Assembly: GCA_964513145.1 (NCBI GenBank)
Contig: CAZELK010000006.1
Coordinates: 2,051 to 66,050, forward strand
DNA from: Candidatus Woesearchaeota archaeon
GTDB lineage: Archaea > Nanobdellota > Nanobdellia > SCGC-AAA011-G17 > JACPIM01
Length of the DNA stretch: 64,000 bases
Direction: 5' to 3'
The stretch's first letter is position 1. Each line of letters begins with the position of its first letter. This document shows positions 3,144 through 54,579 of the stretch, piece after piece. The notes beneath the pieces are model-generated. The model did not search any database, was not told where the DNA came from, and saw only the letters and a list, made by a program, of their open reading frames with translations. A program made the position numbers and the translations under genes.

Positions 3144-3245
3144 GCCCGGGTAGCTCAGACTTTTCCTATATTTAGGAATTGGAGCAACAGGTAGAGCGCA
3201 TGGCTGTTAACCATGAAGTCGGTGGTTCGAGTCCTCCCCTGGGCG
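3144..3245 (+). tRNA. tRNA-Asn (anticodon GTT) with a ~29-nt intron in the D-loop
   Basis: Acceptor stem GCCCGGG/CCTGGGC. D stem GCTC...GAGC is interrupted by ttttcctatatttaggaattggagcaaca. Anticodon arm CATGG-CTGTTAA-CCATG, anticodon GTT. T arm GGTGG-TTCGAGT-CCTCC. Mature length is ~73 nt. Confidence 0.7.
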
Positions 3246-43504: not shown

Positions 43505-43945
43505 CTACAAACATACCTTATTTTTATCAATTACATTAAATATTTCTCCGCGGTATATTTTAATTACTCTTCTCAATGCTTCCAAACCTAAACAAGCACA
43601 TTTAACTCTTACTGGGCTAATCGGGATACTTAAAAGTTCGTAAACTTTTTCTTTTGTTATCCTTTCTGCTTCTTCTATTGTTTTCCCCTTTATTTCAGAA
43701 AGTAACATAGATGAGGCAGCCATACTTATTGCACAACCTTTCCCAAAAAATCTTATGTCTTTTATATAGTCACTTTCTATTTTAATTTGTACAGTTTCTT
43801 CATCCCCACACAATGGATTGAATTCCCTATGCTGAGCATCGAAATTTTCCAATTTACCAAATTGTCTTGGGTGTGTATAATGATCCAGAATATTCTCTCT
43901 GTAAATGCCTTCGCCAGCATAATTTTTATCAATTATTTCTGTCAT
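43505..43945 (-). CDS. sufU: SufU/IscU-type Fe-S scaffold (NifU N-terminal domain)
   Basis: 146 aa. Conserved Cys in LCGDEETV, GCAISMAAS and VKCACLG. Confidence 0.8.
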   Translation of the reverse strand: MTEIIDKNYAGEGIYRENILDHYTHPRQFGKLENFDAQHREFNPLCGDEETVQIKIESDYIKDIRFFGKGCAISMAASSMLLSEIKGKTIEEAERITKEKVYELLSIPISPVRVKCACLGLEALRRVIKIYRGEIFNVIDKNKVCL

Positions 43946-45173
43946 TTTTAAAAATGCTCCTTACTTTGTCTAAAGCCAAAATAAATTTATCAATTTCTTC
44001 TTTTGTATTGTAAAAATACAAACTTATTCTGCAAAGTGCTGCTTCTTTTAAAACTTCCCTTACCAAAGGCATTGCACACATGTGGCCAGCCCTTATTGCT
44101 ATGCCTTCTGAATCCAATATTGCAGCAACATCATGGGGATGAATGTCTGATAAATTAAATGATATTAAAGAGGACCTGTTTTTCGGACCATATATTTTTA
44201 TATCTTTTTGATCGAGTAATTTTTTATATAAATAATTTGTAAGCTCTTTTTCATAATCTTCGATATTTTCCATACTGATAAAATTCAGATAATCTATTGC
44301 TGCACCAAAAGCAACTGCTTCAGCAATTTGAGGAGTGCCTGCTTCAAATTTCCAAGGCAATGTATTAAAAGTTGCATAGTCAAATGCAACTTCTCTTATC
44401 ATATCTCCACCATACAGGAAAGGAGTCATTTTTTCCAATAAATGTTTTTTACCATATAAAACCCCTATTCCAGTAGGGCCGCACATTTTATGACCTGAAA
44501 AAACCAAAAAATCTACATCCAAATCTTTTACATCAACCTTCATGTGCGGAACACTTTGGGCACCATCAACAATGAATAATGAATTATTTTCATGAACTAA
44601 TCTTGATATTTCCTTTACTGGATTTATTGTACCCAATACATTTGAGACATGTGTTATTGAGACTATTTTTGTTTTTTTATTTAATAGTTTTTTTAAATGG
44701 TTTAAATCTAAATTTCCTTCTTTGTCTACTTTTACAAAGTTCAATTTTAATTTTTTTAGTTTTGCTAATTGCTGCCAAGGAACTATATTGCTGTGATGCT
44801 CCATTTGGGAGACAATTATTTCATCATTTTCATTTAAATTATTTAACAATGAATAAGCAACTAAATTCAATGACTCAGTTGTATTTTTAGTAAATATTAT
44901 CTCTTCGAAACCAGAATTAATAAATTCAGCAACTTTTTTATGGGCTTCTTCGTACAGCAAAGTTGATTCTTCAGCTAATTTGTGAATACCACGATGAATA
45001 TTTGCATTGTGTTTTTCAAAGAAATCTTTTAATGTATTTATAACAATTGCTGGTTTTTGTGATGTAGCTCCAGAGTCCAAATAGATTAAAGGCTTATTAT
45101 TAACTATTCTAGCAAGTATTGGGAAGTCTTTTCTTATCTTCTCTATATTAATTTGTTTTGTTAAAATTTCCAT
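43929..45173 (-). CDS. sufS: Cysteine desulfurase SufS (class II aminotransferase V)
   Basis: 414 aa. PLP lysine in FSGHKMCGPTGIG and catalytic Cys in RAGHMCAMP. Confidence 0.9.
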   Translation of the reverse strand: MEILTKQINIEKIRKDFPILARIVNNKPLIYLDSGATSQKPAIVINTLKDFFEKHNANIHRGIHKLAEESTLLYEEAHKKVAEFINSGFEEIIFTKNTTESLNLVAYSLLNNLNENDEIIVSQMEHHSNIVPWQQLAKLKKLKLNFVKVDKEGNLDLNHLKKLLNKKTKIVSITHVSNVLGTINPVKEISRLVHENNSLFIVDGAQSVPHMKVDVKDLDVDFLVFSGHKMCGPTGIGVLYGKKHLLEKMTPFLYGGDMIREVAFDYATFNTLPWKFEAGTPQIAEAVAFGAAIDYLNFISMENIEDYEKELTNYLYKKLLDQKDIKIYGPKNRSSLISFNLSDIHPHDVAAILDSEGIAIRAGHMCAMPLVREVLKEAALCRISLYFYNTKEEIDKFILALDKVRSIFKNDRNN

Positions 45174-45174
45174 T

Positions 45175-46359
45175 TTATTTTAATTTAGAATTTATTGCTT
45201 TTCTAAGATTTTTTCTTGCCTCTTTTATTTTAATTTTTCTTATTATTGGATCAAAAAAACCTTTTATCATTAATTTTACAGCCTTATCTTCAGGCAATCC
45301 CCTTGATTTCAAGTAAAATAATTTTTCTCTGTCTAATCTCGAGACTGTTGTACCATGACTACATTTTACATCATTATTGTTAATTTCTAAATTCGGTATC
45401 GGGTCTATCTCAGCATTTGAACTTAATAACAAAGCATCCTGCTTTTGATAACCATTTGAGTTTGAGGCATTTTCAGCTATTTTTACAAGACCATTATAAA
45501 CTACTTTTGATTTATTATCTAAAACGCCACGAACAGCCATATCTGATTTTGTATGCTTAGAATTGTGGTATATTGAAGAATTAAAATCAAACTGCTGCTC
45601 TTTGTTTGAGAAAAATAAACTAAAAACATTTGTGCTTGAGCCTTCTTCTTCTAATTTTGTAAGTATTTCTGATTTTGTTAATTTACTGCCTAAGCAAAAA
45701 TCAATCCAATTAATATTTGCATTTTTGTTAACAACAGCTCTTTTTGTAGAAAAATTTATTGTGTTTTGTGAAAGATTTTGGAAGTTTATATAATTTAAAC
45801 TTGAATTATTATTTACAAAGATTTCTGTTATTTTTGTTTTGTAGGATTTATTTTCATTGCTTGATAATTCTTCTTCAAAAATAGATGCTGAACTATTTTC
45901 ACCTAAAATAATTATATTATGCTGAAATTCTGAATCTCCACCTATATTTGATAATTTAATGGGCTCTTTTAAAGTAACATTCTCTGGGACATATACTAAT
46001 ACCCCTTTATTCCATAATAATGTATGCAAGGCTTCGAATTTACCTATTGATGGAAAACAAGAAAGAAAATGTTTTTTTATTAAATCTTCATGGCTTTTTA
46101 ATGCTACAGATAAATTTTCTATAATTACATCTTTATAGTTTGGTAATTTAATTTCTTTTTTCTCCGGAAGTTGAATCTCGTTTAGATTTATTTCTGATGA
46201 GTTAAGAGTTATTGCTATCCCGTACTTTAATTGTGGCAATGGCAAAGAATTGAAAATATTTAAAGCATTTAATCTTTTTTCCTTCATCCAAGCAGGCTCA
46301 TCGCTATTTTGGATTTGGTTTATTATTTCTCTGTCCTGAAAATTTAAATTTTGATTCAT
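45175..46359 (-). CDS. sufD: Fe-S cluster assembly protein SufD
   Basis: 394 aa. SufB/D beta-helix family. Shorter than the adjacent SufB and lacks its Cys motifs. Confidence 0.8.
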   Translation of the reverse strand: MNQNLNFQDREIINQIQNSDEPAWMKEKRLNALNIFNSLPLPQLKYGIAITLNSSEINLNEIQLPEKKEIKLPNYKDVIIENLSVALKSHEDLIKKHFLSCFPSIGKFEALHTLLWNKGVLVYVPENVTLKEPIKLSNIGGDSEFQHNIIILGENSSASIFEEELSSNENKSYKTKITEIFVNNNSSLNYINFQNLSQNTINFSTKRAVVNKNANINWIDFCLGSKLTKSEILTKLEEEGSSTNVFSLFFSNKEQQFDFNSSIYHNSKHTKSDMAVRGVLDNKSKVVYNGLVKIAENASNSNGYQKQDALLLSSNAEIDPIPNLEINNNDVKCSHGTTVSRLDREKLFYLKSRGLPEDKAVKLMIKGFFDPIIRKIKIKEARKNLRKAINSKLK

Positions 46360-46390
46360 TTTAACCTTTTTTGTGAAAAAAACTTTTTAT

Positions 46391-47800
46391 TTAACCCAGA
46401 GACTTATCCATTTCTAATTCAATTAACCTGTTTAATTCTACAGCATATTCCAGTGGCAGTGCTTTTACTATTGGTTCTATAAAACCAGCTACAATCATTT
46501 TCATAGCCTGTTCTTCTGACAAACCTCTTGATCTTAAGTAAAATATTTGTTCATCACTTATTTTACCAACAGTTGCTTCATGAGCTATTTCAGCGTCATT
46601 TTCTTTTATTTCCATATAAGGAAATGTATTTGATTTTGACTGCTCATCAATTAGCAGAGCGTCACATTGAACAGCAGCTTTTGTATTTAAAGCGCCTTTT
46701 GCAACTTTCAACAAACCCCTATAAGATGTTATACCGCCGTCTTTGGCAATACTCTTTGATCTTGTTACTGATGTTGTTTCAGGAGCTAAATGATAAATTT
46801 TTGTTCCAGTATCCTGATTTTGTCCTTTACCTGCGAATGCAATTCCAAGAAAATCCGATCTTGCTTTTCTTCCAATTAAAACAGAACAAGGATATAACAT
46901 TGTACATCGGCTTCCCGAATTTCCATTTAACCAGTTGATTGTACCTTCTTCATCTACAATTGCTCTTTTTGTATTTAAATTAAAAGTATTTTTTGACCAA
47001 TTTTCTACACTTATGTAAGATGCTTTTGCTTTTTTCTTAACATGAATTTCAACACAACCAGCATGAATAGAACTTGCTACATACTGCGGAGCGGAGCAAC
47101 CTTCAAAATATTGCATTTCTGCACCTTCATCTACAATAATTAAAGTATGTTCAAATTGACCCATTTTTTCTGCATTCATTCTGAAATAAGCTTGTAATGG
47201 AACTTCAACTTTAACATTTTTAGGTATATAAATAAAAGTCCCACCAGACCAGACTGCAGCATGCAAAGCAGAAAACTTATGCAAGGCAACTGGAACACAT
47301 CTTGTCATAAAATGCTTTTTAAATAATTCCGGATATTTATTAATAGCTATGTCACAGTCAGTGAAAATGACCCCTTTTTCTTCCAAATCTTTTTTTAAAT
47401 TATGATAAACTGCCTGAGACTCATATTGCAATCCAACGCCACCAAGAACATTTCTTTCTGCTTCTGGAATTCCTAATTTTTCAAAGGTTCTCCTAATATC
47501 TTCTGGCAAGTCTTCCCATTTTGTTGCATTCTCTTTTGCATCGGGAGTAGCGAAAAATTTTATTTTATTAAAATCATTCATTAATTGACTTATATCAGGA
47601 CCCCAATTCGGAATTGGCATGGAGTTAAATATTTTTAAAGCATTTAACCTAAATTGGCGCATCCATTCAGGTTCCTTTTTATAATCAGAAATTTTATGAA
47701 TAATTTCTTCTGTTAAACCTTCGCCAGCAATGTATTTAAACCGATCTTCATTTTTATGATCAAACATCTCTCTTGATAATTGTTCTTGAATTTGTTTCAT
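46391..47800 (-). CDS. sufB: Fe-S cluster assembly protein SufB
   Basis: 469 aa, with a typical SufB conserved C-terminal region. Confidence 0.9.
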   Translation of the reverse strand: MKQIQEQLSREMFDHKNEDRFKYIAGEGLTEEIIHKISDYKKEPEWMRQFRLNALKIFNSMPIPNWGPDISQLMNDFNKIKFFATPDAKENATKWEDLPEDIRRTFEKLGIPEAERNVLGGVGLQYESQAVYHNLKKDLEEKGVIFTDCDIAINKYPELFKKHFMTRCVPVALHKFSALHAAVWSGGTFIYIPKNVKVEVPLQAYFRMNAEKMGQFEHTLIIVDEGAEMQYFEGCSAPQYVASSIHAGCVEIHVKKKAKASYISVENWSKNTFNLNTKRAIVDEEGTINWLNGNSGSRCTMLYPCSVLIGRKARSDFLGIAFAGKGQNQDTGTKIYHLAPETTSVTRSKSIAKDGGITSYRGLLKVAKGALNTKAAVQCDALLIDEQSKSNTFPYMEIKENDAEIAHEATVGKISDEQIFYLRSRGLSEEQAMKMIVAGFIEPIVKALPLEYAVELNRLIELEMDKSLG

Positions 47801-47802
47801 TT

Positions 47803-48972
47803 TTATATTAGAATTTTTGATTCTACCTCCCTCTTGAAAGTTTTATTTCTAAGAATGTCTACAATCTCAGCCAGAATTTTAGCAACATAATTTATTTCTT
47901 CCTCTGTATTAAATTTTGATAATGTAAACCTTAAAGTCCCTCTTGCATAATCTTCGGAAATATTTAATGCTCTTATCACATGGCTTACGCCAATTTTATG
48001 CGAAGAACATGCTGAACCGCTGGAAACATAAATTCCATAATCATTTAAATGCAAGATTAAAGTTTCAGACTCCATTCCCTTAATTGATATGTTTAAAGTA
48101 TTGGGGAGTCTTAATTCAGGGTGACCATTTAATTTTGAATTTTGTATTTTTAATAGTGAACTTTCTAATTTATTTCTTAGACTAATTAATTTTTTTACAA
48201 TTACTTCCTTATCTTGCTGTGAAATCTCCAAGGCTTTTGTAAAACCTATTATTGACAACAGGTTCTCAGTTCCAGATCTTAAACCAAATTCCTGCTCTCC
48301 ACCATGAATTAATGGATCCAATTTTATTCCTTTTTTTACATATAATAAGCCGGCTCCTTTTGGGCCATGCATTTTTATTGAATTTAATGTTAGTAATGAA
48401 CAATTTAAGTTATTCACATTTAAATCCAATAAAAAAGCTTGACAAGCATCTGTGTGGAAAATAATATTCTTTTCTTTTGATATATTTCCTATTTCAGAAA
48501 TATTTTGTATAGTTCCGATTTCATTATTTGCGTAGATTATTGAAATTAGAATTGTATTTTTTGTAATCTCTTTTTTTAGTTTTTCTAAATCTATTAAACC
48601 ATATTTATCCACGTCCAGATAAGTTACCTTAAAACCCTGTGTTTCCAAATATTTACATGTGTTTAATACAGAATGATGCTCTATTTTTGATGTGATAATA
48701 TGATTGCCTTTTGATTTGTTTGCAAAGACAGCACCTTTAATTGCTAAATTATTACTTTCAGTTCCGCCTGAAGTGAAAATAATTTCGTTAGATCCTGTTT
48801 TTAAAATTTCAGCTGCTTTTTGCCTGCAGTTGTCCAAGATGTTTTTTGCTTCGCTACCAAGATCGTGAAAACTACTTGGATTATAATAAATTTCCTCATA
48901 TTTCTGCATTTCTTCTTTAACTAATGGATCTAGTTGTGCAGAAGCTGCATTGTCAAGATAAATTTGTTTCAT
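47803..48972 (-). CDS. Cysteine desulfurase, NifS/IscS-like (class I)
   Basis: 389 aa. PLP Lys in SIKMHGPKGAG and SGSACSS active-site loop. Confidence 0.85.
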   Translation of the reverse strand: MKQIYLDNAASAQLDPLVKEEMQKYEEIYYNPSSFHDLGSEAKNILDNCRQKAAEILKTGSNEIIFTSGGTESNNLAIKGAVFANKSKGNHIITSKIEHHSVLNTCKYLETQGFKVTYLDVDKYGLIDLEKLKKEITKNTILISIIYANNEIGTIQNISEIGNISKEKNIIFHTDACQAFLLDLNVNNLNCSLLTLNSIKMHGPKGAGLLYVKKGIKLDPLIHGGEQEFGLRSGTENLLSIIGFTKALEISQQDKEVIVKKLISLRNKLESSLLKIQNSKLNGHPELRLPNTLNISIKGMESETLILHLNDYGIYVSSGSACSSHKIGVSHVIRALNISEDYARGTLRFTLSKFNTEEEINYVAKILAEIVDILRNKTFKREVESKILI

Positions 48973-49345
48973 TTTTTTTTGTTAAGCAAATATCACAAGT
49001 ATCTGGCAAGCCTTCGTTATGATATTGACAGGCTTTACAAACAACTTTATTTTGTAGTGCACTTTCAAGCAAATGCTGCATTTCTTGGAACAATAATTTT
49101 CCATTTTGTGAAATTAATTGCGCTGATTTTTTTATCTCTTCTTTTGTCTGATCATCAAATGTAATTTCGTTTGCCCTTTTTTCCCGGATATATTGTGAAA
49201 CTGCTGCTTCTGTTACTCCTATTACCTTAGCTATAGTTTTTTGATCCAAGCCAAGCTTTTTCATTTCCAAAGTTAATTCTTTCCTTAAAGCAGGCAGAAT
49301 ATACCAAACAGCTATTTCCTGAGGTTGTAGATTTTTCTTAACCAT
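48953..49345 (-). CDS. HTH (XRE-like) transcriptional regulator with C-terminal Cys cluster; first gene of the suf operon
   Basis: 130 aa. HTH segment QKTIAKVIGVTEAAVSQYI. C-terminal CKACQ...CDIC. Confidence 0.6.
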   Translation of the reverse strand: MVKKNLQPQEIAVWYILPALRKELTLEMKKLGLDQKTIAKVIGVTEAAVSQYIREKRANEITFDDQTKEEIKKSAQLISQNGKLLFQEMQHLLESALQNKVVCKACQYHNEGLPDTCDICLTKKNETNLS

Positions 49346-49453
49346 AGTTAATTTTTGTTCTTAAATATATATAAAACTATCTGTTCGACCTTATTCTCCC
49401 TTAAAAGTGGTATTTGCCAAATAAAAAATTTTAAAATGGCGTGAAACCTTAAT

Positions 49454-49594
49454 ATGAAAATGAAATGCACTATATGTGGAGAAAAAATTGAAACTGGAAT
49501 TTTAGATAAGGTTAGAGGGACTTATATAAAGAAAAAAATTGTCTGTTCTGCTTGCCAAAGCAAATACAAAGACAAGATTTTAGAAAAAATTTAA
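49454..49594 (+). CDS. small zinc-ribbon protein (46 aa), tentative
   Basis: MKMKCTICGEKI...CSACQSKY. Too short for the ORF track. Confidence 0.3.
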   Translation: MKMKCTICGEKIETGILDKVRGTYIKKKIVCSACQSKYKDKILEKI

Positions 49595-49626
49595 TTAAAA
49601 TAAATTATTGACAAGAATAATTATAT

Positions 49627-49698
49627 GCCTCTGTAACTCAATGGCAGAGTGCCGCCTTCGTAAGGCGGAGGTTTTGGGTTCAAATCCCATCAGAGGCT
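49627..49698 (+). tRNA. tRNA-Thr (anticodon CGT)
   Basis: Acceptor GCCTCTG/CAGAGGC. D arm ACTC-AATGGC-GAGT. Anticodon arm CCGCC-TTCGTAA-GGCGG. T arm TTGGG-TTCAAAT-CCCAT. Discriminator T. Confidence 0.85.
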
Positions 49699-49709
49699 TT
49701 ATTACAAAA

Positions 49710-49853
49710 TTATTTTATTTTTTCACGTAATTTGTTTAAAAGCTTATATTCCTCTTTTGTTGCATTACCTTCTTTGCACTTTGCTTCTAAGGCAGCAAGT
49801 TGCTCACGATATCCTTTTTGTACTTTAACTATATCTTTTTTTCCACAACCCAT
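49710..49853 (-). CDS. small Lys-rich protein (47 aa), tentative
   Basis: MGCGKKDIVKVQKGYREQLAALEAKCKEGNATKEEYKLLNKLREKIK. Obtained by manual translation; not in the track. Confidence 0.25.
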   Translation of the reverse strand: MGCGKKDIVKVQKGYREQLAALEAKCKEGNATKEEYKLLNKLREKIK

Positions 49854-50286
49854 TTTAAATATGTATTTTGTTAATATTTAAATATTGGGAAACAATTTGC
49901 GTATAGGACACAGACATATTACAGAGAACTTTGCATAATTAACTTTTTACAGAGAACTTTTATATTATTTGGGTTTGGTCCAATTACAACTTTAAGTTGT
50001 GTGGGTTTTCTTTGTTTTTTATTTAATTTTTAATTAAATTGTTATAGCTCTTGCTATGTTGCTTTTTATTAGGAAATTTAGTCTGTGAAAATTGTATGCT
50101 AGGTATACAAATCCCTGCTGCACATAAACTCTTGGTTTTCTATAATAAAAATATCTTCAAGTTCTACTTCTCTCGTTGTATGTGTTCAGGAAAATATCTG
50201 GTAGTATTGAAAGTGCAATTCTCCAAGTACAGTTCCTGCTAACAGATCCAAACTAACTCTCGTGGCTTCGCCAGGGGCTTTAATCC

Positions 50287-50940
50287 CTAATAGATAATAA
50301 ATTCAGACATTGGACCATTGCCATTTCCACGAAAATGAATTTTTTTTGCATGCAGGTTATAGCGATTAAATTCTGATATAGCAAGGCAACCTGAGAAAAT
50401 ATCATACTCATTGCTTCCTGTTATAACTACACCACCCACATTATAACCCTCTACTACGCCAAATGTTGGTGGGGGAATTTTATCTGTAAAAGGTATAGCA
50501 CCGCTGTTGCGCAATAAACTTATAATAGCATTGTCTGCTTCTGAACCAATTGCTATGAAGTTAGTTGAAAAAGGATCTTGTACATTTCTTGCTTCTTGAA
50601 TTACATCCTGAGAAAAGGATGCATTAGAACCATATCTCCTTTTGACTTCAGCTTCTAAGTCTATTTTTATTTTAAAAGCACCTTGACGTACTTGAGAAAT
50701 TGGATTTATTGAATTACTACGACTAATATTACTACCAATAATAATTCTTGAGGTTTGATAGCTTATTATAAAATCATCTAATCTTTTATCTATATAGTCA
50801 AGCTGAATGCCTCCTTGCAACTGGGTTGATTTTTGACTTGATGATGAACTACCACAACCATAATTTTTGCCAATAACAATTGCTGCAAGACCTTTTGCTG
50901 CTACAGAAAAAAACTCTCTTCGATTTAATGATTTTTTCAT
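50287..50940 (-). CDS. Tat-signal (twin-arginine) exported protein, function unknown
   Basis: 217 aa. N-terminal NRREFFSVAAKGLAAIVIG is a classic Tat motif. Gene GC is visibly above the window average. Confidence 0.55.
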   Translation of the reverse strand: MKKSLNRREFFSVAAKGLAAIVIGKNYGCGSSSSSQKSTQLQGGIQLDYIDKRLDDFIISYQTSRIIIGSNISRSNSINPISQVRQGAFKIKIDLEAEVKRRYGSNASFSQDVIQEARNVQDPFSTNFIAIGSEADNAIISLLRNSGAIPFTDKIPPPTFGVVEGYNVGGVVITGSNEYDIFSGCLAISEFNRYNLHAKKIHFRGNGNGPMSEFIIY

Positions 50941-51041
50941 ATAACACCCCTAATTTAGTTTGATTATATAACTTAATAAATATTATTGTAGTTAAGACAT
51001 CTTTCGAAAGGTTAAAATCTTTAAGTGTTTTTTAAATAGGT

Positions 51042-51275
51042 ATGGCTAAAATAAAATACAAAGTATTGTGCAAGAAATGCAAGAAATATTTTACTCCTGT
51101 AAAAAGCAAAATATCTTATTTGGGTTATTGCAAAGAATGCAGTTTTATACCTGGCAAATGCAGATTCATCACTGAAATTGGCTATCCTTGCGTAAATGAT
51201 GCTGAATTTTTTGGCTATTGCATACAACATTTTTTGAAGGTTCCTTTATCTAAATTGACAAAAGAAGTGAAATAA
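51042..51275 (+). CDS. zinc-ribbon protein (77 aa), hypothetical
   Basis: CKKCKK...CKEC pattern. Confidence 0.4.
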   Translation: MAKIKYKVLCKKCKKYFTPVKSKISYLGYCKECSFIPGKCRFITEIGYPCVNDAEFFGYCIQHFLKVPLSKLTKEVK

Positions 51276-51322
51276 TTTATGAAGAAAATTTTATAAAGTA
51301 ACTACTTCTCTGTTCTTTTTAT

Positions 51323-51503
51323 GTGGGGGTGCCAGAGCCTGGTCAATAAGTTTGACTAAATGGGCAGGAACAGAGTTGCTAAACTCAGATTGCCAAACTT
51401 AAGATTTCCTATGAGAAATCCTGTGGCTTAGTGCCTACGCAGGTTCAAAATAAGCTTTTGGAGCTCGTAACTCCTAGAACTTAGGAAAGCCCTGTCCCCC
51501 ACA
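51323..51503 (+). ncRNA. structured RNA, probably an intron-containing tRNA (tRNA-Leu-like)
   Basis: 7-bp terminal helix GTGGGGG/CCCCCAC plus A discriminator. The 5' part TG-CCAG-AGCCTGGTCAA matches the tRNA-Leu D arm with extra inserted nucleotides. The T stem GCAGG...CCTGT flanks TTCAAAA plus ~40 nt inserted. Candidate Leu anticodon loops are CTTAAGA and CTCAGAT. I could not fold the middle unambiguously. Confidence 0.35.
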
Positions 51504-51637
51504 TTTATCATTTTATAATTTATACCTACACTTTATCGCATTATTAATTATGTAGTGTTAACCCAAATAATAATCAAATTTATTTTTTGCAACTTATTCG
51601 AATAGTTTAAAAATAGATTTTAGTTCTGTTTTTTATT

Positions 51638-51762
51638 GCCTGGGTAGCTTAGCTAGTGGAGCACAGAATTCGCTCAGACCCTTGGTATAAACTTTGAAAG
51701 TTTTTATCAAAGCTAAGAAAACAAAAAGGGTGAGGTCGCGGGCGCAAATCCCGTCCTAGGCT
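51638..51762 (+). tRNA. intron-containing tRNA-like gene (possibly tRNA-Thr GGU) with an atypical T-loop
   Basis: Acceptor GCCTGGG/CCTAGGC plus T discriminator. D arm GCTT-AGCTAGTG-GAGC. Variable AGGTC. T arm GCGGG-CGCAAAT-CCCGT. A tentative anticodon stem GACCC/GGGTG with loop TTGGTAT requires a 13-nt and a ~40-nt insertion. Followed by T7. Confidence 0.45.
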
Positions 51763-51789
51763 TTTTTTAAACAAAATATTTTTGTATGC

Positions 51790-51948
51790 AACTTAAAAAC
51801 TTTTAATTAATGACAAAATAAATAATACTATGAAAATTACAAATAGAATTTTTGCTATTGATGCAGAAACTCCAGCAATAAATCTGAAACCTAATATGCC
51901 CGTTATTATTGCTACTATTAAAAATGTTAATGTCCAACCAAGCACCAT
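51790..51948 (-). CDS. DUF1328 / UPF0391 small membrane protein (52 aa)
   Basis: [51 protein letters not shown] matches the family consensus (M.GW...FL..A....LGF..IAG.A..IAKILF.IFL). Not in the track (<60 aa). Confidence 0.6.
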
Positions 51949-52076
51949 GATAGATAAATATTTTTAGCACTTATAATCTTATGTTGTGGTTTTTCAAACT
52001 ACAGCTATAAGAATTCTCATATTATCAAAGCTTCAAACTACGGAACTTATTTAAATAACAACCAAATAACAATCAT

Positions 52077-52547
52077 ATGGACTTAAAAGAAGAGTATGAA
52101 AAATTAAGAAAAAATTACAAACTTCCCAGTTATGAAGATTTAGACAGAGAATTTGAACTGCTTTATGTTGCCAAATTAGAAGAAATAAAATTCCCATTAA
52201 GATTTATCAGGAGAAGAATTACAGATAAACTTAGCTGGTTTTGCAATATGATGCAAAATATAATACAGCCCAATCCAGGTTCTTTAATAAGTCTAGAAGA
52301 AAGCAAGTTTTTTTCAGACAATGACAGAGCAAAAATAATAAATCTACTAAAAGAATTAATGTATTTTGAAAGAGAGTCGCTTATTTTAGAAGTTTATTTT
52401 AATGAAAAAGATGATGTTGAATTTATAAATAATATCTTTGACATCTGGGACAAAACAAAAAAAGAAATTAAATTTATAACAGATATACTTAAAAAAGGCT
52501 GGAAAAAAGAAATGAAAAAAGAGGAAAAAGAACATTATTTTGGCTAA
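52077..52547 (+). CDS. hypothetical cytoplasmic protein (156 aa), first gene of the pilus locus
   Basis: ORF in the track. Lies 2 nt upstream of the first pilin-like gene. Confidence 0.5.
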   Translation: MDLKEEYEKLRKNYKLPSYEDLDREFELLYVAKLEEIKFPLRFIRRRITDKLSWFCNMMQNIIQPNPGSLISLEESKFFSDNDRAKIINLLKELMYFERESLILEVYFNEKDDVEFINNIFDIWDKTKKEIKFITDILKKGWKKEMKKEEKEHYFG

Positions 52548-52549
52548 AG

Positions 52550-53221
52550 ATGAATAAAAGAGGTCAGGTTTATATCTTATTTGCATTAGTTATAGCCTTA
52601 GTTGTTTTTGTTTTAACTAATAAATCAAACATAATCAATATTACTCCTAGTGACAGCGAGTTTAAGGAGATATCAGAAAATTATGAAACTGAAAGCAGCA
52701 ATCTTGTAAGTTCTTTAATAAAATTTAATAAACTTGATGAAGAAATATCAGAACAGTTTGCAACATTCAGCATTTTATTTACACAATATTCAAAAAGCAA
52801 AAATCCTTCTTTTGGACTGGTTTATTTTCTTAATCACAATAATGTTTTAAGAGTAGGAAATTTTTTAGATAAAAATATAAAAGTAACTGGCGGCAGTTCT
52901 GATATTAATCTTGAGGGCTGTTATTCCCTTGTTCCTGTTTTTATAAATTATAATACTTTTCAAATAAACAATTATATTGATTATGAAACATACAGGCGCA
53001 ATTCTATTACTTCCCCATGTGTTAATGAAATAACACCAGCGCCTGATCAAATAATTTTGAAAATAGGTGATGAAGAAATTGAATATGAAGTTAATATTAT
53101 ACCACAACAACCCAGGGTTGTAGTCATAAGCAGGGAAAACTTGTTTCAAGACAGAAAGGTTTTTTTAGATGATCAATTTGTAAAAGGAAAAAGACATAGG
53201 GATAATAGAGATGATGATTAA
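52550..53221 (+). CDS. class III signal peptide (archaeal type IV pilin-like) protein
   Basis: MNKRGQVYILFALVIALVVFVL: a K/R-G-Q cleavage motif followed by a hydrophobic helix. Confidence 0.55.
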   Translation: MNKRGQVYILFALVIALVVFVLTNKSNIINITPSDSEFKEISENYETESSNLVSSLIKFNKLDEEISEQFATFSILFTQYSKSKNPSFGLVYFLNHNNVLRVGNFLDKNIKVTGGSSDINLEGCYSLVPVFINYNTFQINNYIDYETYRRNSITSPCVNEITPAPDQIILKIGDEEIEYEVNIIPQQPRVVVISRENLFQDRKVFLDDQFVKGKRHRDNRDDD

Positions 53222-53657
53222 AAAAAAGGGACAGTCTGAATTTGTAGCATATGTTTTGCTGATAGGCATGGCTGTTGCACTAGCATCAATAATCGGAGTA
53301 TGGAGTTTTAATAATGCACAAAAAGTTAGTGATAATATAATAAAACAAAACAAAATAGAAGAAAAATGCGACCAATTAGCTATTAGCAGCAAAATTATTT
53401 GCCTTAATAATGCTGTAGATTCTATTAGTATTTCTAACACCGGCTATTTTACAATTGATGAAGTTAAAATAACTAATCCAGAAACTGGGCTGGAAAATTG
53501 CTTTAATAAAGTCACAAAAATAAAACCAGGAGAGTCCAGGATTACACAAACTTTAAATAATTGCGATACTGCCATATTATTGCCTTTAGTCAAGATTTCA
53601 GATGATGAGACAATAGGGTGCAGTGAAAAAAAATTGGTGTTGAAATTAATATGTTAA
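53211..53657 (+). CDS. class III signal peptide (archaeal type IV pilin-like) protein
   Basis: MMIKKKGQSEFVAYVLLIGMAVALASIIG: KKGQ|S, a classic prepilin peptidase site. Confidence 0.65.
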   Translation: MMIKKKGQSEFVAYVLLIGMAVALASIIGVWSFNNAQKVSDNIIKQNKIEEKCDQLAISSKIICLNNAVDSISISNTGYFTIDEVKITNPETGLENCFNKVTKIKPGESRITQTLNNCDTAILLPLVKISDDETIGCSEKKLVLKLIC

Positions 53658-54103
53658 AATTTAGAAAGAGGGGTATTTCGCCTTTAATTGCAACTGTGTT
53701 GCTGATCGGGTTTACTGTTGCTATTGCAGCAATAGTAATTTTCTGGAGCAGAAATTTTGTAAAAGAAAAGGCAGAAAAAGAAGGTGCTTTATCAGAAAAA
53801 AAATTAAAATGTGAAAATGTAGAAATTGACATTAAAAGCATTGATAAATTAAATAAAAATATTGTTATTGAAAATAAAGGCAATGAGGACATTGATGGAT
53901 TTATATTAAGAGTTGTTTCTGGTGGTGTTGGATCAGATAAAATTACATTAAAATTAGAAGCTTTAAAAACAGCAACAATTACATATTCTTTTGATTTGGA
54001 AACAAATTCAAAAATTGATTTGATACCAGCATTAAAACCAGAAGGAACAAATGCACCTTTGGTTCCTTGCTCAAATAAACATAAAGTTATAAAAACTGAA
54101 TAA
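53651..54103 (+). CDS. archaeal type IV pilin (Pilin_N / class III signal peptide)
   Basis: MLKFRKRGISPLIATVLLIGFTVAIAAIVIFW. Confidence 0.7.
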   Translation: MLKFRKRGISPLIATVLLIGFTVAIAAIVIFWSRNFVKEKAEKEGALSEKKLKCENVEIDIKSIDKLNKNIVIENKGNEDIDGFILRVVSGGVGSDKITLKLEALKTATITYSFDLETNSKIDLIPALKPEGTNAPLVPCSNKHKVIKTE

Positions 54104-54120
54104 ATTTTAAGGAGGTAAAA

Positions 54121-54579
54121 ATGAGATTTTTAAATAAAAAAGGTATTTCACCTTTAATTGCAACTGTATTATTAATAGGATTTACTGTTGCCTTGGCTGC
54201 AGTAGTCATTACATGGGGCAGCGGATTTGTAAACAGGGTTACAACTGGCACTGACCAAAGAACTTCAAAGGCTATCTCATGCACAGGTGATCTGGATTTT
54301 GAAATTACAAAAGTAACATGTCCAGACACAATACTTGTCAATAACAAAGGCAATTTAGCTATTGAAAGCTTAAATTTAAGATTTTTTGATGAAAATGGAA
54401 ATCTAGCTGGAGTTCCTGCAACAACAGCGCCAATAGAAAAATATGAATTGAAATCAATTACACAAGCTATACCAGTTGGAACAACAAAAGTAGAGGCAAT
54501 TGCAACAGTTATAATTGACGGACAAGAAGCAGTATGCAGTGAAGCAGCAAAACAAAGAACATTTAGCCCAGCCTGCTAA
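54121..54579 (+). CDS. archaeal type IV pilin (class III signal peptide), paralog
   Basis: MRFLNKKGISPLIATVLLIGFTVALAAVVITWGSGFV. Conserved Cys at ~55 and at the C-terminus (..FSPAC). Strong SD aaggaggt 5 nt upstream. Confidence 0.75.
   Translation: MRFLNKKGISPLIATVLLIGFTVALAAVVITWGSGFVNRVTTGTDQRTSKAISCTGDLDFEITKVTCPDTILVNNKGNLAIESLNLRFFDENGNLAGVPATTAPIEKYELKSITQAIPVGTTKVEAIATVIIDGQEAVCSEAAKQRTFSPAC

Follow-up and report, generated by a model that had tools for sequence, protein, structure and literature searches.

A tRNA-Leu gene with four introns and two candidate anticodon cassettes in a Woesearchaeota-like archaeon

The 64,000-nucleotide (nt) stretch of the Candidatus Woesearchaeota contig CAZELK010000006.1 analyzed here (hereafter the window; 29% GC) contains, at positions 51323 to 51503 of its plus strand, a tRNA-Leu gene whose primary transcript of 181 nt is interrupted by four intervening sequences. 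The host reads as a tiny, low-GC DPANN (Woesearchaeota-like) archaeon, and the best explanation of the sequence is that the gene is functional and transcribed. That the locus is a genuine four-intron tRNA-Leu(UAA) gene is, in our view, nearly certain. The gene also harbors a second anticodon cassette, and we consider it probable (roughly 0.6) that it yields tRNA-Leu(CAG) as well, such that two isoacceptors (UAA and CAG) would be produced by alternative bulge-helix-bulge (BHB) splicing of mutually exclusive 7-nt mini-exons.

Gene layout and removal of four introns

Along 51323-51503 the order of segments is GUGGGGGUGCCAGAGCCUGGUCAA, UAAGUUUGACUAA, AUGGGCAGG, AACAGAGUUGCUAA, ACUCAGA, UUGCCAA, ACUUAAG, AUUUCCUAUGAGAA, AUCCUGUGGCUUAGUGCCUACGCAGGUUCAAA, 40 nt, and CCCUGUCCCCCACA. 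The features of the locus are listed below with window coordinates; intron sites are named by the two tRNA positions that they separate, a slash within a bulge marks the cut, and local positions, used further on, are the window coordinate minus 51322.

51290-51297 (+): promoter-like TATA box TTTATAAA, with the purine-rich run GAAGAAAA before it; centered at about −29 from the mature 5′ end; putative function
51323-51346 (+): exon 1, tRNA positions 1-21, with acceptor 5′ strand GUGGGGG, U8 G9, D-stem CCAG, and D-loop AGCCUGGUCAA
51347-51359 (+): intron 1, 13 nt, UAAGUUUGACUAA, in the D-loop at 21/22; bulge-helix-loop type, GGUC:GACU, bulges AA/U and AA/A, central helix 4/4 paired
51360-51368 (+): exon 2, positions 22-30 (AUGG, G, CAGG), aligned to intronless orthologues
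51369-51382 (+): intron 2a, 14 nt, AACAGAGUUGCUAA, with 5′ site 30/31 and ending right before the CAG cassette; GGCA:UGCU, bulges GG/A and AA/A, 4/4 paired including one G.U
51383-51389 (+): alternative cassette ACUCAGA, as A31 C32 U33 C34 A35 G36 A37, anticodon CAG (Leu); predicted exon
51390-51396 (+): spacer UUGCCAA, a second 30/31-type 3′ splice motif; UGCC with exon GGCA, bulge AA/A, 4/4 paired; intronic in either route
51397-51403 (+): cassette ACUUAAG, as A31 C32 U33 U34 A35 A36 G37, anticodon UAA (Leu); kept in all orthologues
51404-51417 (+): intron 3, 14 nt, AUUUCCUAUGAGAA, at the canonical site 37/38; UGAG with CUUA (one U.G) or with CUCA of the CAG cassette (perfect)
51418-51449 (+): exon 4, positions 38-59, with anticodon-stem 3′ strand UCCUG, 15-nt variable arm UGGCUUAGUGCCUAC, T-stem GCAGG, and UUCAAA
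51450-51489 (+): intron 4, 40 nt, in the T-loop at 59/60; UUC:GAA plus an A.G mismatch, bulges AA/A and AG/C, inner helix UAAG:CUUA, with the T stem as outer helix
51490-51503 (+): exon 5, positions 60-73, with C60, T-stem 3′ strand CCUGU, acceptor 3′ strand CCCCCAC, and A73; the CCA end is not encoded
51504-51530 (+): T-rich tract beginning TTTATCATTTTATAATTT, a likely transcription stop

The archaeal BHB consists of two 3-nt bulges around a 4-bp helix and is cut after the second bulge nucleotide. Pairing joins four exon nucleotides, the last of them two before the 5′ cut, to four intron nucleotides, the last of them two before the 3′ cut, a rule with which canonical introns are consistent, their position 32 pairing with the third-last intron nucleotide. 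Applied by hand, this rule puts four introns exactly where the cloverleaf requires them: 13 nt at 21/22, 28 nt at 30/31 (central helix GGCA:UGCC), 14 nt at 37/38 (CUUA:UGAG), and 40 nt at 59/60. The introns of 13 to 14 nt are relaxed bulge-helix-loop forms. Each intron is predicted to fold with its adjacent exon into a BHB or relaxed bulge-helix-loop that would be cut by the endonuclease EndA, the exons being joined by an RNA ligase. BHB-guided in silico intron removal, a check named in the sequence-only reading of this DNA that preceded the present analysis, gives an 86-nt type II tRNA-Leu with A73 and a 15-nt variable arm, which ARAGORN calls tRNA-Leu(taa). The alternative route, which keeps the CAG cassette, likewise gives an 86-nt product, called tRNA-Leu(cag). 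Such an arrangement lies far outside what chance would produce: random splicing with the same intron lengths resulted in any ARAGORN tRNA call in 12 of 3000 schemes.

The BHB central helix is 4/4 paired in exact register at five of six window junctions, which shuffled introns manage in 0.3-2% of trials per junction; at the T-loop junction it is 3/4 paired, which shuffled introns reach in 17% of trials. Thus bulges and the 4-bp helix, in the T-loop with its mismatch, are found at every boundary in the window, and the exact register is backed family-wide at the four sites. After splicing, the cloverleaf is complete, with a 7-bp acceptor stem, G18 G19, a 7-nt anticodon loop with U33, a UUCRA T arm, a long variable arm, and A73. 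RNAalifold, applied to the spliced and intronless sequences, recovered the acceptor, anticodon, variable, and T arms, with compensatory change at eight pairs, and drew a different, non-cloverleaf pairing for the D arm. An anticodon stem GGAAA/UUUCC around CUUAAGA was dropped once CAGGA/UCCUG and the orthologues had fixed the exons. The raw locus gives no ARAGORN match, even with intron search, and no Rfam match at the gathering score or at E ≤ 10; such a miss on the genomic sequence is expected because four introns interrupt the gene. Across the 64 kb, ARAGORN and Rfam report one complete tRNA, tRNA-Thr(CGU) at 49627-49698, and a partial match at 3188-3241.

Much of this layout had been glimpsed in the sequence-only reading. 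Its terminal helix GUGGGGG (51323-51329)/CCCCCAC (51496-51502) followed by A73 (51503), its D arm CCAG-AGCCUGGUCAA with 13 extra nt (51347-51359), and its T stem GCAGG/CCUGU enclosing UUCAAA with 40 extra nt (51450-51489) are all present as it described them, and its suggestion of a multi-intron tRNA-Leu is supported by the BHB splicing scheme, the ARAGORN calls on the spliced products, and the orthologues described below. The D- and T-loop insertions that it proposed were both confirmed but were incomplete as an inventory, as two more introns lie in the anticodon arm, at 30/31 and 37/38. It had remained undecided between the anticodon loops CUUAAGA and CUCAGAU because both belong to genuine conserved cassettes: CUUAAG lies at 51398-51403 and CUCAGA at 51384-51389, each with BHB-compatible sites, and the CAG loop would read CUCAGA plus A38. 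The TATA-like element that it saw in tttttat (51314-51320) abuts the 5′ end of the gene; the likely box is instead TTTATAAA, and of 68 distinct upstream regions from orthologues, 41 have a TATA-like box with its center between −27 and −30.

The sequence of the gene is not an assembly artefact, because Logan contigs reproduce the window there. Window positions 47460-51440 are matched without mismatch by Logan assemblies from four sequencing runs, and 51420-53506 are likewise reproduced by contigs from two of the same four runs (contigs matching the window region come from SRR12113383, SRR12113384, SRR12113420, SRR12113422, and SRR12113424). Of the five Logan contigs with the upstream protein, four stop at 51440 and one already at 50972, and the contig on the downstream side begins at 51420, within exon 4. 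These ends suggest that exon 4 is repeated among co-occurring strains or species and therefore breaks the assembly graphs.

Orthologous genes and the second anticodon cassette

Orthologues were collected by an exon-1 pattern search of GTDB genomes, which returned four loci (L001-L004), and by an exon-4 pattern search of metagenomes, which returned 87 stretches of DNA. Among the four genomic loci, L002 (Candidatus Woesearchaeota RIFCSPHIGHO2_02_FULL_30_43) is a tRNA-Leu(UAA) orthologue with four introns at exactly the four positions used in the window, and L003 is an orthologue with two introns, at 30/31 and 37/38; L001 is an intronless tRNA-Leu(CAG) in a Woesearchaeota metagenome-assembled genome, and L004 is a Nanoarchaeota tRNA-Leu(GAG). 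In total, Woesearchaeota-like genomes and metagenomes yielded about 70 distinct orthologues with zero to five intervening segments each, counts that are approximate only, since they come from a spliced-alignment dynamic program that reports spurious terminal "introns" where acceptor stems differ. The intron sequences are unrelated, and the insertions recur at five sites: about 15/16, 20-22, 30/31, 37/38, and 59/60. Introns at 21/22 are longer in the orthologues than in the window. The second D-loop site, at about 15/16, is used by L052, L007, L016, L021, L044, L060, L028, and L074, which have approximately four or five segments per gene. Presence and absence thus vary with precise boundaries, from none (L041, L059) through two (L003) to the same four (L002).

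The intronless members of the family show what the spliced window gene should look like. On the Rfam tRNA model RF00005, L041, L059, and L088 reach 54-56 bits, which supplies, by way of orthologues about 94% identical to the spliced UAA product, the covariance-model check that the sequence-only reading had suggested. Against L041 the product differs at 5 of 86 positions, and four of these differences form two compensatory acceptor pairs; exon 1 equals that of L041 and L059 except at two acceptor-stem positions, each of which changes together with its pairing partner.

The orthologues also allow the splice motifs to be compared across the family. For this purpose, constructs anchored on exon boundaries only were used. 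For 30/31, 37/38, and 59/60 these consisted of 7 nt of exon, the initial 6 and the final 11 nt of the intron, and another 2 nt of exon; for 21/22 the initial 5 and the final 10 nt of the intron were taken. Pairing at the true register and at slid registers was as follows.

30/31 BHB (29 distinct sequences): 95.9% paired at the true register, 24-45% when slid
21/22 BHB (9 distinct sequences): 98.6% paired at the true register, 28-68% when slid
59/60 BHB (15 distinct sequences): 80% paired at the true register, 25-66% when slid
37/38 BHB (22 distinct sequences): 73.6% paired at the true register, 36-50% when slid

The 30/31 central helix is 100% paired family-wide, with exon changes compensated in the intron, as in GACA:UGUC (L028, L079) and GAGC..:UGCU, and its inner helix shows double changes at five of five pairs. 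Conservation is limited to the exons and splice motifs and does not extend to the whole 181-nt fold. Judged by this covariation, the inserts of the orthologues are genuine BHB introns in exact register.

A second anticodon cassette, ACUCAGA followed by ACUUAAG, is found in 11 loci, the window and 10 further ones, which together represent 10 distinct sequences. Contigs with a double-cassette gene include Ga0080064_1000049, Ga0209726_10000014, Ga0233425_10001810, Ga0209541_10000244, Ga0209515_10000435, and Ga0210057_1000335, and single-cassette genes lie on Ga0066341_11 and JAGVZG01, among others. The loci fall into two architectures. In the first (the window, L052, L015, L073, L020, and L089) a BHB intron precedes the CAG cassette, and in the five relatives the equivalent of intron 2a forms a full hBHBh′ motif. 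In the second (L036, L028, L069, and L079, the last identical to L087) no intron stands between G30 and the CAG cassette; L036 is read by ARAGORN as tRNA-Leu(cag) with a canonical 27-nt intron, inside which the UAA cassette lies. Outside the tRNA, weak coding matches of 63-73% are the only nucleotide similarity between the double-cassette loci, which therefore represent about seven divergent lineages. ACUCAGA is identical at 7 of 7 positions in all 10 distinct genes from these lineages, while the flanking intron segments average 55-69% identity. In a comparison of nine intervening regions, from which L089 (a single nt away from L020) and L087 were omitted, every 5- to 7-mer that all nine have belongs to the cassettes, and of 224 intronic 7-mers none is shared by the whole set. 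Both cassette 7-mers are therefore invariant on divergent contigs, in the manner of purifying selection, and no decayed copy was seen among the orthologues, in which the CAG cassette is either intact or absent.

The placement of the cassette is likewise constrained. In every case it lies at a point from which BHB cuts would take it, in frame, as positions 31-37: immediately behind G30 in some genes, immediately behind a UGCY-AM 3′ splice motif in the others. The 30/31 introns of single-cassette genes show no sequence constraint at their 5′ ends. In every double-cassette gene, whichever route is taken, the central helices keep at least three of four pairs, and the window has 4/4 pairing in each of the four helices concerned. 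A regular-expression search for the tandem motif-cassette-motif-cassette arrangement over the approximately 0.7 Mb of DNA examined found only Leu genes and AT-rich noise. A simple putative origin of the second cassette is a tandem duplication of UUGCCAA-ACUUAAGA, followed by U34 to C and the loss of one A, a course that would explain the A37 of the CAG cassette.

One related locus has a different form. L086 (Ga0209541_10006429), about 60 nt upstream of the exon-4 match, holds only the 3′ part of a Leu gene, from position 31 onward, with the leader UAUUGGCUUUUCAAUUGCUAA directly before ACUUAAG; this part has its own promoter-like AAAAACTTTATAAAAC, adjoins a divergent open reading frame (ORF), and is related to the double-cassette genes L015 and L052. 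L086 looks like a split tRNA-Leu broken at 30/31, its 5′ piece presumably elsewhere, which suggests that the split and the cis double-cassette architectures are evolutionarily connected. The comparison of sequences points to a both-cassette design conserved in at least seven divergent Woesearchaeota-like lineages and apparently tied by intermediates to intron-containing genes and a split gene.

Competing folds and rival explanations

The proposed mechanism has two tandem anticodon mini-exons competing for shared pairing partners. Each cassette stands behind a UGCY-AA 3′ motif that can pair with the same exon nucleotides, G25 G26 C27 A28, and C32-A35 of each can pair with the same UGAG just upstream of the 37/38 3′ splice site, which is common to both routes. 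In the default route, the 21/22, 30/31, 37/38, and 59/60 introns would be removed, with cuts in the anticodon arm after local positions 46, 74, 81, and 95, to leave the 86-nt tRNA-Leu(UAA); ACUCAGA would then lie inside the 28-nt 30/31 intron. Cuts after local 46, 60, 67, and 95 would make ACUCAGA an exon and give tRNA-Leu(CAG), with the anticodon loop CUCAGAA. The 30/31 fold occupies G25-A28 and therefore precludes the anticodon stem that the 37/38 fold of the CAG cassette needs, such that the two folds would be mutually exclusive; because of this, one transcript could mature in two ways. In an intermediate, or in a precursor of the L036 type, the stem would form and the long 37/38 intron with the UAA cassette would be removed, giving CAG. 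Alternatively, GGCA would pair with the downstream UGCC and the CAG cassette would be removed, followed by the short 37/38 intron, giving UAA. The tRNA body would be common to both products, and archaeal leucyl-tRNA synthetase recognizes A73 together with the long variable arm and is not known to read the anticodon.

Fold energies and codon usage bear on how such products might be apportioned. In the isolated anticodon arm the competing folds differ by −6.5 to +1.4 kcal/mol (constrained ensemble energies, indicative only), while in the full window precursor the UAA route is favored by about 5 kcal/mol (again indicative only) because a GAGUU:AACUC hairpin sequesters the CAG cassette. Among 14,389 codons of the window, UUA occurs 812 and UUG 253 times (together 1065) versus 73 for CUG. 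The preference for the UAA route, with a major UAA and a minor CAG product, would fit this codon usage.

The strongest competing explanation is that the same four-intron gene makes only tRNA-Leu(UAA), with ACUCAGA an inert part of the 30/31 intron that is always discarded, possibly through two nested steps. We regard this as less probable than two products, though as a serious contender. ACUCAGA could then be what is left of a tandem duplication 15 nt in length (UUGCCAA-ACUUAAGA) or of another intron that entered at the 30/31 site, and a tandem repeat whose period is about 14 nt does occur in the window (local 49-63 and 64-77). The greater stability of the UAA fold in the window precursor also agrees with a single product. 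Several further observations weigh against the production of tRNA-Leu(CAG): the CAG cassette has A37, where CUN-reading Leu tRNAs, including the stand-alone tRNA-Leu(CAG) of L001, have G37; in L036 (UAAG) and L069 (UAGG) the shared 37/38 motif pairs perfectly with the UAA cassette and makes a C.A mismatch with the CAG cassette; the cassette is absent from about 60 of the roughly 70 distinct orthologues; the double-cassette genes showed no covariation peculiar to the CAG version of the 37/38 fold; and tRNA-CNN species can be dispensable in archaea, according to PMC6000648. The base opposite position 34 is G in six of eight double-cassette types and A in the other two, and about half of the single-cassette genes have G. 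Yet an inert segment should drift like the intron around it, and ACUCAGA does not, being unchanged in about seven lineages among neighbors that are 55-69% identical and share no 7-mer. Nor is the lack of decayed copies expected of a discarded relic, or its constant placement where BHB cuts would yield in-frame positions 31-37, given that the 5′ ends of single-cassette 30/31 introns are unconstrained.

Two explanations that deny the gene its role as a tRNA had been left open by the sequence-only reading and find no support here. A decaying tRNA-Leu gene, loaded with insertions and no longer matured into a working tRNA, might account for the failure of standard detectors and for the unusually large number of insertions. 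However, every insertion is bounded by a BHB in register, the same insertion sites and covarying helices recur across about 70 orthologues, and the exons match those of intronless orthologues with stem differences that are compensatory only. The promoter box is conserved, the splice motifs and, after splicing, the stems are intact, and no broken stems or decayed conserved positions were found; the gene also keeps its place in a conserved Thr(CGU)-Leu-Thr(GGU) cluster, and the 64-kb window has no other tRNA-Leu(UAA) candidate, although UUA is its most used Leu codon. A pseudo-tRNA is thus very improbable. Least credible of all is another structured small RNA, such as a regulatory RNA or tRNA-like element, that resembles a tRNA at its ends only. 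The unspliced 181-mer does fold stably (−63.7 kcal/mol) and matches no Rfam family, but five exon blocks together rebuild a complete type II cloverleaf, orthologues exist without any insertion, and it is the exons and splice motifs, not the overall fold, that are conserved.

Neighboring genes and comparison with known systems

The window contains two further interrupted tRNA genes. At 51638-51762 (+) lies a tRNA-Thr(GGU), missed by ARAGORN and Rfam, with introns of 13 nt at 27/28 (51665-51677; GAGC:GCUC) and 39 nt at 37/38 (51688-51726), which after splicing is a 73-mer called tRNA-Thr(ggt). In its T-loop the sequence is CGCAAAU (C54 G55, not U54 U55), compared with UUCRA in the orthologues, and the same bases are seen in an independent Logan contig. 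At 3144-3245 (+) lies a gene for tRNA-Asn(GUU) that carries a 29-nt D-loop intron (3159-3187; GCUC:GAGC), of which Rfam finds the partial match at 3188-3241 only; the spliced 73-mer is called tRNA-Asn(gtt). The order tRNA-Thr(CGU), tRNA-Leu, tRNA-Thr(GGU) is conserved between the window (49627-51762) and L036 (7146-7553), and many other loci likewise have Thr(GGU) next after Leu. A Suf iron-sulfur cluster operon, with two SufB/D-like genes and a class-V aminotransferase (SufS-like) gene, is located at 43929-48972 (−), upstream of the tRNA genes just described as a cluster. Six small ORFs around the tRNAs (one at 50287-50940 and five within 52077-54579) have no Pfam match.

The tRNA-Thr(GGU) genes are also a source of misannotation. 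Because the ARAGORN intron search takes intron bases (..GCUCAG) for the anticodon, tRNA-Thr(GGU) with a 27/28 intron is mislabeled as Leu(cag/tag/aag/caa) in L011, L024, L034, L060, L054, L031, L063, and L036 (7460-7553), a warning for the automated annotation of such genomes. An apparent tRNA-Leu(CAG) just downstream of several single-cassette loci, called "Leu(cag)i(33,8)" by ARAGORN, was rejected for this reason: it is really tRNA-Thr(GGU), the 27/28 intron of which has the 3′ end ..GCUCAG.

Regardless of whether two products are made, the four BHB introns exceed the published archaeal maximum that we found, which is three introns per tRNA gene according to PMC4033280 and the tRNAscan-SE 2.0 paper (PMC8450103). 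Our literature search, the coverage of which was incomplete and included few subscription journals, found no report of alternative tRNA splicing that gives two isoacceptors, nor of four-intron archaeal tRNA genes. If the gene does make both, its transcript would be the first tRNA precursor found to undergo alternative splicing in cis. The anticodon repertoire would then be larger than a count of genes suggests, and RNA folding could set the ratio of two isoacceptors, with a rare CUG reader as the minor product beside an abundant UUA/UUG reader. PMC5829648 links DPANN EndAs with an extra loop, including that of a Woesearchaeota genome, to tRNA genes that are heavily disrupted and to predicted tRNA sets that are incomplete; genes with four or five tiny introns and hidden anticodons are what tRNA finders would miss or mislabel, and they would offer a concrete explanation for such gaps. 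In addition, the occurrence in one family of genes without introns, genes with between one and five of them, double-cassette genes, and a single gene that is apparently split provides a natural series for the evolution of intron-containing, split, and shared-piece tRNAs.

Compared with canonical archaeal type II tRNA-Leu, the mature UAA form has the expected 7-bp acceptor stem, A73, D-loop AGCCUGGUCAA with G18 G19, long variable arm, UUCAAA T-loop, U33, and G37; what sets the gene apart are its four interruptions and the second anticodon cassette. It resembles the multi-intron tRNA genes of Thermoproteales (Pyrobaculum, Thermofilum, Caldivirga), ARMAN, and Cyanidioschyzon merolae, which also combine noncanonical D-loop, anticodon-stem, and T-loop introns with one at 37/38, are defined by BHB or relaxed BHB motifs, and are missed by standard tRNA finders. 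Removal is presumably sequential, with the 37/38 intron last, as was shown for C. merolae (PMC3728597). In contrast to the archaeal maximum of three, there are four introns here (should the double-cassette region be removed in two steps, five segments would be excised) and up to five in relatives; unlike Thermoproteales, the host is a mesophilic-looking DPANN archaeon with 29% GC and not a crenarchaeote, and several of its introns are only 13-14 nt long.

The proposed exchange of anticodon pieces also has counterparts in split genes. In the tri-split tRNA-Gly of Caldivirga maquilingensis and the split tRNAs of Nanoarchaeum equitans, as described in PMC4033280, isoacceptors share body pieces, the anticodon piece is exchangeable, and joining depends on the BHB. 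However, in those organisms separate genes are joined in trans, while here both pieces lie in cis and mutually exclusive folds would make the choice. Indeed, the window gene is itself not split, as its exons are contiguous, on one strand, and behind one promoter-like box, and the likeness to split tRNAs is functional, residing in a shared body and exchangeable anticodon pieces. A further analogy is provided by the mutually exclusive exons of eukaryotic mRNAs, in which a single docking sequence pairs with one selector at a time and thereby chooses one of the tandem cassettes. In the tRNA-Leu precursor, competing RNA pairings would similarly choose one of two tandem cassettes, but with an endonuclease and a ligase acting on a BHB rather than a spliceosome, with exons of 7 nt, and with a tRNA as the product.

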